Below are positions 1 through 11,684 of a stretch of DNA of 11,684 nucleotides, piece by piece. Numbering within the stretch: position 1 is the stretch's first letter; each line of letters opens with the position of its first letter. The translations under genes and the position numbers were made by a program. The stretch spans positions 1 to 11,684 of the IMG/VR virus record IMGVR_UViG_3300045988_067725. The stretch is one strand, 5' to 3'. Under the pieces are notes generated by a model. That model searched no databases and was not told the origin of the DNA. It worked only from the letters and a program-made list of their open reading frames with translations. The DNA comes from a virus.

Positions 1-42
1 ATGCACCTCGCTCACCTGTCGCCCCTTTCCCCGTGCCGTGAT

Positions 43-87
43 TGTTCCACGTGGAACACACCGCCCACGATGTTTCACGTGAAACAT
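43..87. promoter_or_regulatory. Two adjacent perfect palindromes near the terminus; candidate origin or DNA-binding-protein sites
   Basis: TGTTCCACGTGGAACA (43..58, 16 bp) and ATGTTTCACGTGAAACAT (70..87, 18 bp) are both perfectly self-complementary. They are related (GTTYCAC|GTGRAAC), with centres 28 bp apart. Confidence 0.6.
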
Positions 88-90
88 TAG

Positions 91-118
91 TATTAACATT
101 ATTTAACAATTATTAACG
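91..118. repeat. 10-bp phased A/T-rich repeats (TATTAACA / ATTTAACA / TATTAACG)
   Basis: tattaacatt|atttaacaat|tattaacgtg is three units at exactly 10-bp spacing. They open an A/T-rich block (about 88..205) that follows the G/C-rich tip 1..70. Confidence 0.6.
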
Positions 119-134
119 TGTTGCAAAAAAATTC

Positions 135-185
135 ACAAATGTAAACAGGTTGTTTAGTTTTGTAAACCGTTCAGTTTACATTTGT
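135..185. repeat. Inverted repeat ACAAATGTAAAC ... GTTTACATTTGT (12-bp arms, 27-bp spacer)
   Basis: 135..146 acaaatgtaaac is the exact reverse complement of 174..185 gtttacatttgt. A further TGTAAAC copy lies at 161..167. Confidence 0.7.
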
Positions 186-205
186 AAATTGTAACAAATA
201 TGTTT

Positions 206-235
206 CGTGCCGTGCCGTGTCGTGCCGTAACGTGC
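206..235. repeat. Degenerate pentanucleotide array (CGTGC)n
   Basis: cgtgc cgtgc cgtgt cgtgc cgtaa cgtgc is six in-phase 5-bp units. A short cgtgccgtg copy also occurs at 32..40. Confidence 0.7.
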
Positions 236-256
236 CAACGGTTGCGTGTGTGATGC

Positions 257-321
257 TTTGCCGTGCCTGTTGGCTCAACGTTTGCCCGTGTTGTTAATTT
301 GTACAGGTTTCATACGTTGCC
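257..321 (+). repeat. Direct repeat copy A, inside the ITR (mirrored at 11364..11428)
   Basis: 257..321 aligns with 707..771. The first 40 bp are identical (tttgccgtgcctgttggctcaacgtttgcccgtgttgtta). There are then 4 mismatches (297, 298, 310, 313) before the sequences diverge. Confidence 0.85.
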
Positions 322-406
322 AACAGGTAACAGGGCGTGCCGTATGTGTGCTGTGTGGCTTCAATACGTGCGCCCTGTTGCGTTGTTTTGCTGTTGGTGT
401 ACATTG

Positions 407-714
407 TTACGGGTTCGTGCCTGTTGGCTCAATTACAACGCCCTGTTGCAGTCGGTTTAATATGTCGCTGTATTCTGCTAAATACATACCGTCTGTTTGT
501 AGGTTGTCAATATCAACAAACGTGTTGCGCCCCGTAAAATTGCCGATGCGGTCACGCTTGTTTGCGTTGTACGGTTGTGCCTGTCTGCTCTCATTGTAAC
601 GTATCAGTATGTAAGGCGTTAAACCCTGCAACGTGGTTGTGTCGTTTGTCAGTTCGCCAAATTTGTCGCTATATGTACGATATAACATAGGTGAAACCGC
701 TTTACATTTGCCGT
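407..714 (-). pseudogene. Duplicated 3' fragment of the tail gene (last 102 codons); 93-aa ORF 688->407 with an in-frame ATG
   Basis: The ORF 407..688(-) translates to MLYRTYSDKFGELTNDTTT...VVIEPTGTNP. This is identical to residues 443..535 of the 535-aa product of 9671..11278. Nucleotide identity continues up to 714. Confidence 0.8.
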
Positions 715-9157: not shown

Positions 9158-9177
9158 CTTTTGAGGGTTTAACGTTA

Positions 9178-9217
9178 CAGGGCGCACACGCAACAACAGG
9201 CGTTGCGCCCTGTTTTC
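9178..9217 (+). terminator. Rho-independent terminator after the capsid gene
   Basis: cagggcgcaCacgc (9178..9191) pairs with gcgttgcgccctg (9200..9212), giving a 13-bp stem with a single-C bulge. The loop is aacaacag, and TTTTC follows. Confidence 0.8.
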
Positions 9218-9230
9218 ATATATTGACAAT

Positions 9231-9665
9231 ATGGTAACACTCAAATTATACGAATATACAGGCGCACCCAACGTTATAAATAAGCAGTTGGGCGAACCGT
9301 CTGCAACGTTGCAGGGGGTTTTGTACGACCGTACAAACGTACTGCAACCCGTGGTTAAATTGGAGCGCATCACACCCACATTTAATTACGTCTATATTGA
9401 GCCGTTGAGCCGTTTTTATTTCGTTTCTAACGTTACAATAGTGGACGCAAATTTTATGTTGGTAACGTTGCAAGAAGACACGTTAAAGACATACGAAACG
9501 ACTATATTAAACGCAACAGCCACGGCAACCAAAACGGCAACCCCGAATTATGACAGCAACAACACACCCGTTTTTGACGTGCGAAAGCAGTTGCAGCAGT
9601 TGGAGTTTGGGGGCGGTTTTGACGAAACAGGCAGCGTTATTATGGTAACAATTAAAGGTGATTAA
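9231..9665 (+). CDS. Tail protein (144 aa); resembles the N-terminal domain of phi29 gp9-type tail-knob proteins
   Basis: NYVYIEPLSRFYFVSNVTIVDANFMLVTLQEDTLKTY resembles the remembered gp9 N-terminal block SYIMFQN...[30 protein letters not shown]. It is the first gene after the capsid terminator. Confidence 0.75.
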   Translation: MVTLKLYEYTGAPNVINKQLGEPSATLQGVLYDRTNVLQPVVKLERITPTFNYVYIEPLSRFYFVSNVTIVDANFMLVTLQEDTLKTYETTILNATATATKTATPNYDSNNTPVFDVRKQLQQLEFGGGFDETGSVIMVTIKGD

Positions 9666-9670
9666 AGACT

Positions 9671-11278
9671 ATGGCAAGGACATACACAATAACGTTGAAC
9701 GGCACAAATTGCACTGCAAAACAGTTGGTTTCACCTGTTGAAGCAGGTGCAAGCAGCACCGTTATAATACAGGCGTTTTCGGGGTATTGGTTCGTTGATC
9801 CGTGGCAGGTTTCATATTTTGACTATGATAACGGGTATTACACCCGTAAAACCTGTATTTTGAACGAAGACAAAACCGAAGCGACATTTGAATTTACAGG
9901 CATAGGCAGCAACATTGTTATTGACGCAACAGCGGTTGAAGCACCCAAACCGACCGACTACAAAATTATAACAGCGTTGACCGAGTGCCAAGTTACACCG
10001 TTAGACGGGTTTAACGCAGGTGATACCGTGCAATTAGAAGTTACTGCAAACCGTTGGTTTTACTTTGGCACTGATACCCCGTTTGTACGTTATACCAACA
10101 CCGAGGGAAACGAAGTAACGCACCCGTTTGAACTGACAACGAACCAATACGGCACGTTGAAAATAACGGACGCAAACAGCGACATAACAGTTACAGGCGT
10201 AGCCACAAAGACCCCAAACGCTATATTTATAGCAACAGACGGTTTACACAACGCAACGTGTGATTTACCGCAATTTTTGAATTTTGGCACAGAGTACACA
10301 GCAAACGTAAAAGTTGAAAAAGGGTATAAATTTGACCCTAACGCAATTTGCGGTATATCGTGGCAAACAAATTTCGGTGAATTTACTGCAAAGTATTTCA
10401 CCAAAGCAGAAGACGGCAAAAGTGCAACACTGACGTTTACCACACCAGAACAGGACAAAATTGAAGAATACATAATGAGCGTGTACGGCACGCCCGTACC
10501 TGTTGTTGAGTATGACGGTATATATGGAAGTATAAACGTTTACGTTGTAGATGATACGCAATTAAATGAATTTGCAAAACAACGTTATGTTGTAAGCACT
10601 GACCCACAAACAGGCGTTTCAGATTATGACGATATGGGCGAATTTGTTTTGCGCTTACATCGTGTTTACGTTGGCGTTGGTACTTTGACCGACACAGTAA
10701 TTAAAGCAGGTAGATACAACACAGGTATTGCCACAAAAGCACCTTTGCAAGACGTGGCACAGGTTGAGTTTGACAGCGTGAGAGTACCGACACCCAACAA
10801 CGACATAACAGACTACAACGCAGACGTAGAACTATATTTGCCGTTTGTTGGTACAATACAATTAGACGCAAATACAGTTGTGGGGCGTGACGTTTCAATT
10901 ACATACGTTGTAAACATCGTTACAGGTCAAGCAGCAGCGTTTGTTTACGTGGACGGTGCAACAATATACAACGGCAAATGTAAAGCGGTTTCACCTATGT
11001 TATATCGTACATATAGCGACAAATTTGGCGAACTGACAAACGACACAACCACGTTGCAGGGTTTAACGCCTTACATACTGATACGTTACAATGAGAGCAG
11101 ACAGGCACAACCGTACAACGCAAACAAGCGTGACCGCATCGGCAATTTTACGGGGCGCAACACGTTTGTTGATATTGACAACCTACAAACAGACGGTATG
11201 TATTTAGCAGAATACAGCGACATATTAAACCGACTGCAACAGGGCGTTGTAATTGAGCCAACAGGCACGAACCCGTAA
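9671..11278 (+). CDS. Tail / receptor-binding protein (535 aa): three tandem ~90-aa beta-sandwich-like repeats plus a gp9-like C-terminal domain
   Basis: Repeats at residues ~4-93, ~96-182 and ~184-277 each start Y/F-x-I with one early Cys. They end ...IVIDATAVEAPKP, ...ITVTGVATKTP and ...IMSVYGTPVP. The C-terminus RIGNFTGRNTFVDIDNLQTDGMYLAEYSDILNRLQQGVVIE resembles the remembered phi29 gp9 C-terminus ([39 protein letters not shown]). The last 102 codons lie inside ITR-R. Confidence 0.85.
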   Translation: MARTYTITLNGTNCTAKQLVSPVEAGASSTVIIQAFSGYWFVDPWQVSYFDYDNGYYTRKTCILNEDKTEATFEFTGIGSNIVIDATAVEAPKPTDYKIITALTECQVTPLDGFNAGDTVQLEVTANRWFYFGTDTPFVRYTNTEGNEVTHPFELTTNQYGTLKITDANSDITVTGVATKTPNAIFIATDGLHNATCDLPQFLNFGTEYTANVKVEKGYKFDPNAICGISWQTNFGEFTAKYFTKAEDGKSATLTFTTPEQDKIEEYIMSVYGTPVPVVEYDGIYGSINVYVVDDTQLNEFAKQRYVVSTDPQTGVSDYDDMGEFVLRLHRVYVGVGTLTDTVIKAGRYNTGIATKAPLQDVAQVEFDSVRVPTPNNDITDYNADVELYLPFVGTIQLDANTVVGRDVSITYVVNIVTGQAAAFVYVDGATIYNGKCKAVSPMLYRTYSDKFGELTNDTTTLQGLTPYILIRYNESRQAQPYNANKRDRIGNFTGRNTFVDIDNLQTDGMYLAEYSDILNRLQQGVVIEPTGTNP

Positions 11279-11305
11279 CAATGTACACCAACAGCAAAAC
11301 AACGC

Positions 11306-11356
11306 AACAGGGCGCACGTATTGAAGCCACACAGCACACATACGGCACGCCCTGTT
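11306..11356 (+). terminator. Candidate terminator hairpin downstream of the tail gene (mirrored at 329..379)
   Basis: aacagggcg (11306..11314) pairs with cgccctgtt (11348..11356). An inner cgtat/atacg extension is possible. The stem shares CAGGGCGCAC with the capsid terminator. No U-tract follows, so confidence is moderate. Confidence 0.4.
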
Positions 11357-11597
11357 ACCTGTTGGCAACGTATGAAACCTGTACAAATTAACAACACGGG
11401 CAAACGTTGAGCCAACAGGCACGGCAAAGCATCACACACGCAACCGTTGGCACGTTACGGCACGACACGGCACGGCACGAAACATATTTGTTACAATTTA
11501 CAAATGTAAACTGAACGGTTTACAAAACTAAACAACCTGTTTACATTTGTGAATTTTTTTGCAACACGTTAATAATTGTTAAATAATGTTAATACTA

Positions 11598-11642
11598 ATG
11601 TTTCACGTGAAACATCGTGGGCGGTGTGTTCCACGTGGAACA
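11598..11642. promoter_or_regulatory. Mirror copy of the two terminal palindromes in ITR-R
   Basis: atgtttcacgtgaaacat at 11598..11615 and tgttccacgtggaaca at 11627..11642. Confidence 0.6.
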
Positions 11643-11684
11643 ATCACGGCACGGGGAAAGGGGCGACAGGTGAGCGAGGTGCAT

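Follow-up and report, generated by a model that had tools for sequence, protein, structure and literature searches.

The stretch of DNA analysed here, positions 1–11684 of the IMG/VR record IMGVR_UViG_3300045988_067725 (the whole 11,684 nt are referred to below as the window), represents, in all probability (about 0.85), a phi29-like podophage of the virulent, protein-primed type whose linear genome is here essentially complete; the phage belongs to a distinct uncultured lineage of the Astrithrvirus-like group. The points of interest of this lineage are its lack of lysis genes, the relocation of a gene from one end of the genome to the other, a datable extension of its inverted terminal repeat (ITR) and a probable Bacteroidota host.

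A small phi29-like genome bounded by inverted repeats

Positions 1–714 of the window are 100% reverse-complementary to positions 10971–11684, leaving 10256 nt between the two arms of the ITR. The plus strand carries eleven non-overlapping open reading frames (ORFs), which lie between and partly within the ITR arms, specify products of 81, 85, 133, 205, 735, 410, 403, 187, 395, 144 and 535 aa (in that order), and make up 85% of the sequence. The minus-strand ORFs are antisense artefacts, with the exception of that at 407–688, a truncated mirror copy of the last gene. No tRNA was found when the window was scanned.

Four of the products matched Pfam families, all of them above the curated cut-offs, and a PHROGs search agreed on the function of each. 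The protein-primed family B DNA polymerase (PolB; 2657–4864, plus strand) matched PF03175 (DNA_pol_B_2; E = 1.5e-17, 64 bits against a cut-off of 25.8), phrog_1907 (5.9e-75) and the structure of the phi29 polymerase, 1XHX (2.6e-7). Its translation contains the Exo I–III motifs FDIETTS, HNLVYEF and YCIND, and the polymerase A, B and C motifs DFTSSYP, KEMVNACYG and YSDTDS. The gene that follows (4876–6108, plus strand) specifies a gp16-type packaging ATPase (PF05894, Podovirus_Gp16, 1.9e-22, 80.6 bits; phrog_2150, 3e-34). The true start of this gene is probably the ATG at 4981, giving a protein of 375 aa (373–383 aa in relatives). The gp10-type portal, or upper collar connector (6209–7420, plus strand), was recognised by PF05352 (Phage_connector, 7.7e-8, 32.5 bits) and phrog_2038 (5.1e-36), and the phi29-type major capsid protein (7970–9157, plus strand) by PF25622 (Phi29_MCP, 2.5e-53, 182 bits). 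Of the features that mark the phi29-like podophages in the broad sense of PMC11476376, the window shows a linear genome with ITRs (perfect over 714 nt), a PolB of the protein-primed type, and the gp16-type ATPase, gp10-type portal and gp8-type capsid protein.

A previous interpretation made from the letters of the window alone (the sequence-only reading) had described perfect ITRs at both edges, 11 co-directional genes, a PolB of the protein-primed type and a core of gp16-like ATPase, gp10-like portal and gp8-like capsid, all of which are borne out by these results. It had also named a lack of profile similarity to phi29 gp16, gp10 and gp8 as what would count against it, an objection removed by the Pfam and PHROGs matches. 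Its proposal that the window is a whole replicon holds in so far as this is a whole or nearly whole linear replicon, while the physical ends have probably not been captured. Three features had escaped it: the overlap of the ITR with 308 nt of the last gene, the lack of a lysis gene, and the much shorter ITR of the nearest strains.

Placement within the Astrithrvirus-like phages

Searching the capsid proteins of GenBank phages led to the genus Astrithrvirus and its relatives, with genomes of 11.2–11.9 kb and capsid proteins 55–58% identical to that of the window over full-length matches. The four core proteins show 34–59% amino acid identity to those of the phages astrithr, Astrid, Phanie and DU_PP_III, and eight of the window genes gave collinear tblastn matches to this group. 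The map order of these isolates is: small gene, gp02, PolB, ATPase, small membrane protein, portal, gp07, capsid, gp09, gp10, endolysin and leftward small genes. The window shares with 'cluster 23', the Astrithrvirus-like group of phi29-like phages of Gram-negative hosts, a size within 11–14 kb, the order terminal protein-Pol-ATPase-portal-gp07-like-capsid, and a tail knob specified by two genes. It has neither the endolysin (CHAP/amidase) that follows the knob in that cluster nor the leftward early genes of the right end, and no similarity to the lysins or right-end genes of astrithr or Phanie was detected in it. At the nucleotide level, megablast of the window against 50,697 phage records gave zero matches, and the genus-level similarity to Astrithrvirus astrithr (about 70% according to the International Committee on Taxonomy of Viruses, ICTV) is not reached, the core proteins being 38–58% identical.

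The phi29-like phages of Gram-negative bacteria with genomes of 11–14 kb have already been described as a group, characterised by a shortened lower collar, a tail knob split in two genes, the absence of tail fibres, and CHAP-type lysins (PMC11476376). The smallest published isolated tailed phage, Astrid/astrithr, has a genome of 11.6 kb (bioRxiv 10.1101/2025.06.18.659913). Since genome size and gene order are shared with the Astrithrvirus-like phages, the window is of a known kind: its lineage is new within the known mini phi29-type phages of this group, and opens no new class, whether of size or of architecture. The sequence-only reading was right that the gene order differs from that of phi29 (all genes on one strand, the ATPase gene directly after that of PolB) and that the genome is very small; at 11.7 kb, however, it lies at the published minimum of 11.6 kb and not below it. 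The suggestion of an undescribed lineage with a new gene order has to be abandoned, the order being that of the genus Astrithrvirus and its relatives (PMC11476376). What it had labelled 'tail' is most probably a tail knob split into two genes.

Closer relatives are uncultured. A capsid search of IMG/VR returned 270, the best 80 of which were fetched (L006–L085). In these best 80 of 270 matches the capsid protein is 70–74% identical to that of the window and nearly all genomes measure 11–13 kb; they split into two subclades of 36% and 44% GC, and most have perfect ITRs of 85–419 nt (1050 nt in L068). Three further genomes, taken from other assemblies, share the exact 11-gene, one-strand layout of the window: L095 (97.1% nucleotide identity), L101 (96.1%; the record is labelled human gut metagenome, PRJEB1220) and L096 (about 73%). 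In a neighbour-joining tree of the four concatenated core proteins, the IMG/VR clade is the sister group of a cluster formed by the window, L095 and L096, and the isolates branch outside both. The exact capsid protein of the window belongs to a 90% identity cluster of 53 members drawn from JGI, ENA, Logan, MGnify and NCBI assemblies, which indicates that the species is recurrent. The lineage adds to the smallest known tailed phages a well-delimited member, with at least three species-level genomes, one of them gut-labelled. Vibrio phage K58 g2 (L099, OZ195715.1, 10.39 kb) was considered as a smaller relative and rejected: its record opens with the ATPase gene and closes in a truncated polymerase gene; a linear ITR genome is represented here in permuted and incomplete form, which gives no evidence of a smaller phage.

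Several points weigh against an essentially complete phi29-like phage genome. The 714-nt ITR was read from assembled contigs. The window starts with ATGCACCTCG and lacks the terminus AAAGGTAC found in its sister clade. The proteins proposed below as terminal protein and single-stranded DNA-binding protein (SSB) were assigned from position and weak similarity only. No match to the prohead RNA (pRNA) of Salasmaviridae/Picovirinae was obtained with Rfam on either strand at E ≤ 1. With no lysis gene and no transmembrane protein, autonomous lytic growth is left unexplained. Finally, the nine relatives found in GTDB bins of metagenome-assembled genomes (MAGs; L086–L094, some of them near-complete genomes and some shorter fragments) come with inconsistent taxa: Scatosoma, Prevotella, Gastranaerophilales/Melainabacteria, Tissierella, Staphylococcaceae and Clostridia.

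Lysis functions and lifestyle

In 79 of the 80 fetched relatives a small membrane protein (family c6, with a weak match to BhlA holin, 5e-4) is encoded between the ATPase and portal genes, the position of an annotated small gene in astrithr and Phanie (gp05). This family is absent from the window in all six frames, and hairpins occupy its place; the window lineage has lost the holin-like gene. No endolysin was found in the window with Pfam or PHROGs. The 36% GC subclade has an endolysin of the Peptidase_M15_3 type (2.8e-20) and the 44% GC subclade has none, as in the window lineage; the isolates carry CHAP, amidase or other lysins, that of Phanie being an amidase. None of the 11 products contains a membrane span (the maximum 19-residue Kyte-Doolittle mean is 1.42), and no tail-fibre or spike gene was recognised among the window genes, which offer only a split knob with immunoglobulin (Ig)-like domains. 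Lacking an endolysin, a holin-like or other membrane protein, and a fibre gene, the window encodes no recognisable lysis function or receptor-binding fibre. Such genomes can drop every recognisable lysis gene and yet stay conserved.

One explanation, which we consider a real but minority possibility, is that the phage is a helper-dependent satellite or hitch-hiker similar to Acinetobacter phage Phanie, providing its own capsid and DNA replication while relying on a helper for adsorption (or a tail) and lysis. This would extend, rather than exclude, the identification of the window as a phi29-like phage genome. It would account for the missing endolysin, holin-like and membrane proteins, and for the reduction of the adsorption apparatus to a split knob with Ig-like domains and no fibre or spike; this knob is homologous to gp09 and gp10 of astrithr/Astrid, an architecture also present in Phanie. 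Phanie depends on the myophage Aci01-1, and it has been proposed that the strategy may be wider in the group (PMC11476376). Nevertheless, an amidase is retained in Phanie, and endolysins (CHAP or others) in the isolates, so that the loss of lysis genes is not a known signature of satellite life among these phages; Astrid, moreover, has been described as a non-satellite (bioRxiv 10.1101/2025.06.18.659913). No candidate helper emerged, and a soluble, single-gene lysis protein could be hidden among the products o81, o85 and o133. A stricter version, in which the window would be an obligate helper-dependent, 11-gene mini-phage of gut Bacteroidota that retains no more than replication, capsid, packaging and a knob adaptor and borrows both its adsorption device and host lysis, is somewhat more doubtful still. 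If true, it would carry the Phanie/Aci01-1 type of satellite, a single known case, into another phylum and further along the path of reduction, with the lysis genes lost. Whether growth is autonomous or helper-dependent becomes a concrete, testable question for the whole Astrithrvirus-like group.

The absence of lysis genes would also suit a phage-derived element that does not lyse its host but persists like a linear plasmid or is released chronically, and phi29-like sequences annotated as Enterococcus and Clostridium plasmids do exist (PMC11476376). This is very improbable, since the full set of capsid, portal, ATPase and tail-knob genes is present and apparently under purifying conservation (window and L096 are about 73% identical in nucleotides and 73–83% in amino acids), none of the 11 genes was recognised as serving partition, integration or repression, the capsid capacity of the clade sets genome size, and relatives were found only in MAG bins, never inside an isolate genome.

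Recent extension of the terminal repeat

The right ITR arm (10971–11684) comprises the last 308 nt of the distal tail-knob gene followed by a non-coding end of 406 nt; for this reason the left arm carries the truncated mirror copy at 407–688 (minus strand, 93 codons with an ATG start), identical to residues 443–535 of the 535-aa knob protein. This mirror ORF points to the left terminus, and a weak promoter-like site lies upstream of it (minus strand, 812–783). In strains L095 and L101 the inner edge of the ITR falls at window coordinate 348/11337, the tail-knob gene is wholly outside the repeat, and on the left side the ITR is followed directly by CTTATAAT. The presence of this edge in strains 96–97% identical to the window indicates that the 714-nt ITR is a recent extension private to the window strain. 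In the left arm (1–714), positions ∼1–348 are ancestral, and 349–714 are the recent extension, mirroring 10971–11336, which gave rise to the mirror ORF.

The sequence at the junction suggests how the extension may have arisen. A 65-nt element has a first copy at 257–321 and a second, 94% identical copy at 707–771 (plus strand) that represents a diverged inner part of the ancestral left ITR. The first 8 nt of the second copy, TTTGCCGT (707–714), are the microhomology at the extension junction. In the reverse complement of the tail gene, CTTTACATTTGCCGT is continued by TGTATATT; at the left end of the window, CTTTACATTTGCCGT is continued by GCCTGTTGG; in the ancestral ITR, GCCTGTTGG is preceded by GATGCTTTGCCGT. 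A strand primed at the right end could have copied 714 nt, entering the tail-knob gene; at the 8-nt TTTGCCGT, the nascent strand could then have left this template for the left end, resuming at 715. A single switch of this kind would yield exactly the sequence of the window, and we infer template switching as the mechanism of ITR extension.

An alternative is that the 714-nt ITR, or its extension into the knob gene, was produced during assembly or amplification (a fold-back chimera or a collapsed repeat), the real genome being like those of L095 and L101. The two closest strains indeed lack the extension, and a de Bruijn assembler gives symmetric repeat-unique-repeat contigs by construction. 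Two contigs from other samples bear on this. L005, from a second sample, equals window 715–10970 exactly, i.e. it breaks precisely at both repeat boundaries. L004, from a third sample, equals window 699–11547; it crosses the left junction by 16 nt, reads through the 10970/10971 boundary in an independent sample and enters the right arm by 577 nt. The reproduction of the repeat boundaries in L004 and L005 makes an assembler artefact unlikely, although both contigs stand under one project label (LISI16-1) and could share a library artefact. In addition, a k-mer assembler cannot join sequences via an 8-nt microhomology without spanning reads, and ITR lengths are naturally fluid in the clade (85–1050 nt), with L068 even duplicating a whole gene. 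An artefactual origin is accordingly improbable. Read as a genuine extension, the window shows cleanly how the ITR of a protein-primed phage has grown in nature: the parental state is kept in strains 96–97% identical, and the junction can be traced to 8 nt of microhomology.

Relocation of an early gene from the right to the left end

The left ITR arm is followed by a non-coding leader (715–917, plus strand) that contains TATAAT at 780–785 and TAACTTTG, a TAnnTTTG motif, at 863–870. The first two genes after it specify o81 (918–1163, plus strand), a small early protein without a transmembrane segment, and o85 (1210–1467, plus strand), a homologue of family c9 (hidden Markov model E = 5.6e-10; 1.2e-8 in a six-frame search). 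For o85, the ATG at 1231 is the likelier start and would give a protein of 78 aa. A split c9 gene, with o81 as its N-terminal half, was considered and discarded, the match having E = 0.008 among 12 proteins but 0.16 in a six-frame search.

An important difference between the window lineage and the 62 relatives in which family c9 was found is that in the latter the gene lies at the right end on the minus strand, while in the window lineage it is at the left end on the plus strand. The move from right to left made all 11 window genes co-directional, and the left-end position of this early gene sets the lineage apart from all others examined. The segment 829–879 of the leader resembles the leader of the right-end c9 gene in L071. 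In L068, a complete c9 gene is present in each arm of a perfect, 1050-nt ITR (366–719, plus strand, and 11967–12320, minus strand; arms at 1–1050 and 11636–12685), a natural case of gene duplication by ITR expansion in this clade. This suggests a route in which ITR expansion would duplicate the gene and one of the copies would then be lost, with the state seen in L068 as a plausible intermediate. Together with the extension in the window, L068 indicates how a gene can change genome ends through expansion of the ITR.

The left ends of the relatives contain a minus-strand ORF family, c11, that was rejected as a gene because it runs antisense to two real small genes. In 43 loci of the 44% GC subclade (left ends at about 300–830; e.g. 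L013 454–789), where c11 is the longest, spurious ORF, the consensus specifies on the plus strand a ∼75-aa protein that has a lipobox-like LQGC besides a hydrophobic segment and could be an exclusion lipoprotein or a spanin. The second small plus-strand gene there specifies a ∼70-aa, c16-like protein. Both small genes are missing from the window lineage.

Replication, collar and tail genes

The gene directly upstream of PolB (2017–2634, plus strand) specifies o205, which is 32% identical to astrithr gp02 (E = 6e-11). Proteins of the gp02 type have been called p3-like (PMC11476376). In a PDB profile search o205 did not match the phi29 terminal protein; its matches to armadillo-repeat structures were set aside as helical, low-complexity noise. 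By position and gp02 homology, o205 is a candidate terminal protein, i.e. the replication primer. Preceding it, o133 (1529–1930, plus strand) belongs to a family conserved across the gut clade and found in 74 loci. Its AlphaFold2 model (AF2; pLDDT 79) gave as best fold matches PrgE, RPA70N and bacterial SSBs, all non-significant (E ≥ 0.02), and the protein is a candidate SSB with an OB-fold. An apparent 46-nt variant in the PolB gene of L004 turned out to be a scaffold gap of Ns.

The portal ends in an acidic, low-complexity C-terminal tail of ∼110 residues rich in Gly, Asp, Thr and Glu (residues ∼296–403, window 7090–7420), from which a local AT-skew peak of 0.41 arises. The window has no obvious scaffold gene of its own, so that this tail could conceivably act as a scaffold or as a DNA mimic. 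The next product, o187 (7417–7980, plus strand), is a homologue of astrithr gp07 (E = 2.7e-7); its family was found in 78 loci and had no match in a PDB profile search. By elimination from the protein inventory of PMC11476376, o187 is more likely a shortened lower collar (tail tube) than a scaffold, the label given to it in the sequence-only reading.

Two genes probably specify the tail knob. The N-terminal, proximal part, o144 (9231–9665, plus strand), is 34% identical to astrithr gp09, and its family profile aligned with the N-terminal regions of two known knobs, that of phage C1 (4EO2, E = 0.0012) and, at E = 0.56, phi29 gp9 (5FB4). The distal part, o535 (9671–11278, plus strand), consists of three N-terminal Ig-like domains and a C-terminal knob part, the same architecture as gp10 of Phanie and Astrid (PMC11476376). 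Residues 280–421 matched astrithr/Astrid gp10 with E values of 1e-6 to 1e-7. In the AF2 model, residues 1–277 (the three Ig-like domains) have a pLDDT of about 90, with low confidence beyond. PDB sequence and profile searches with o535 gave no meaningful match, and the model found only generic Ig-like matches in Foldseek, because the knob part is poorly modelled as a monomer.

These assignments are consistent with the following cycle. The terminal protein o205 would prime PolB at origins within the ITRs, and strand-displacement replication would follow, in which o133 probably serves as SSB. The gp16-type ATPase would then package the terminal-protein-capped DNA, as unit-length linear molecules if phi29-type homology is followed, through the gp10-type portal into a small phi29-type capsid, to which a reduced tail would be added, formed by a short collar and the two-gene knob (o144 and o535) with its Ig-like domains.

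Genome ends, palindromes and RNA structure

Many contigs of the sister clade start with 5′-AAAGGTAC, and in six of them (L039, L074, L050, L084, L015 and L022, first 12–32 nt) an Illumina adapter ending in GTGTGCTCTTCCGATCT is fused directly to 5′-AAAGGTAC, which marks the physical genome end of that clade. The first 45 nt of L064 are a Nextera-type sequence; adapter remnants contaminate these IMG/VR records. The termini of the sister clade begin with AAA, as does that of phi29 (AAAGTA; PMC11476376). In the window, the paired TTYCACGTGRAA palindromes lie 45 nt from the end, compared with about 150–250 nt in relatives with fuller ITRs. This distance, together with the different start of the window, suggests that the contig may lack up to 100–200 nt at each end; its ends are probably not the physical genome ends. 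For the missing terminal sequence there is neither room nor precedent to hold extra genes.

The 12-nt palindromes of the window are TTCCACGTGGAA (45–56) and TTTCACGTGAAA (73–84), mirrored within 11601–11640 (11601–11612 and 11629–11640), i.e. four matches where none were expected. The TTYCACGTGRAA palindrome was found in 70 of the 99 genomes and related loci, with 249 terminal and 21 internal matches; it occurs twice per ITR arm, the copies 28 or 42 nt apart, and is absent from the Astrithrvirus isolates. It probably marks the origin of replication or its vicinity, as a site bound by a dimeric origin or early-regulatory protein. A cluster of TGTAAAC/GTTTACA repeats at 140–200 of the ITR, and its mirror, forms a long hairpin when folded (z = –2.2, minus strand).

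The two tandem hairpins in the 100-nt gap between the ATPase and portal genes (6140–6195, plus strand) reached z = –3.0, while RNA folding of the ITR and leader segments gave an unconvincing –0.2 to –2.2; beyond these paired hairpins, folding revealed no non-coding segment with strong structure. The stem of the first hairpin reuses the GTGGAAC/GTTTCAC half-sites of the ITR palindromes.

Host

In the window lineage, 5 of 29 ORFs (17%, which equals background) have a Shine-Dalgarno (SD)-like motif ahead of them, and in the IMG/VR clades 14–24%; in the Proteobacteria-infecting isolates the count is 38 of 45 (84%). The TAnnTTTG motif is enriched, with 15 occurrences versus 7.0 ± 2.4 expected, and is found 55 nt before the start of o81 and 31 nt before that of the portal gene. 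SD-independent translation and a –7 promoter element are traits of Bacteroidota. The absence of SD motifs, the TAnnTTTG motifs, the 44% GC and the gut-labelled sister strain make a Bacteroidales host the best guess for the window lineage, and the SD-poor starts and TAnnTTTG enrichment suggest Bacteroidota hosts for the whole gut clade. SD absence is also a cheap clue to the host phylum for hundreds of unassigned gut contigs. Assigning hosts from the MAG bins was rejected, their unrelated taxa being taken as mis-binning or phage contamination. No paper was found in the literature for the sample identifiers.

Comparison with known phages

The window has in common with phi29 a protein-primed PolB, a gp16-type ATPase, a gp10 portal, a gp8-type capsid, a probable gp9-type knob and linear DNA with ITRs. 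In contrast, phi29 has a genome of 19.3 kb, an ITR of 6 bp, and the divergent early and late operons with a last-placed ATPase gene that are typical of Salasmaviridae/Picovirinae; its pRNA, head fibres, appendages, gp13, holin and endolysin were not found in the window. Mycoplasma phage P1 (genus Dybvigvirus) is of similar size (∼11.7 kb) and, like the window, has about 11 co-directional genes and long ITRs (some hundreds of bp); it also has a terminal protein. It did not turn up among the capsid-protein matches in the phage collection, and differs strongly from the window in host and base composition.

The Astrithrvirus isolates resemble the window in genome size (11.2–11.9 kb), ITRs, gene order, a ∼185-aa protein, a ∼145-aa N part and a large Ig-domain C part of the knob, and in having no tail fibres. 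They differ in carrying an endolysin gene after the knob gene, a small membrane protein gene between those of the ATPase and portal, and leftward right-end genes, while the window, unlike them, has an extra conserved 133-aa gene ahead of the terminal protein gene. The ITR of 714 nt compares with 84–219 nt in Astrid, Phanie and DU_PP_III.

The uncultured IMG/VR gut clade, with 70–74% identity in the capsid, 56–67% in PolB and 63–73% in the ATPase, keeps the holin-like c6, has c9 at the right end on the minus strand, and possesses two small left-end genes, one with a lipobox-like signal. With the window it shares o133, the terminal protein candidate, the split knob, the TTYCACGTGRAA palindromes of the ITR and SD-poor genes.

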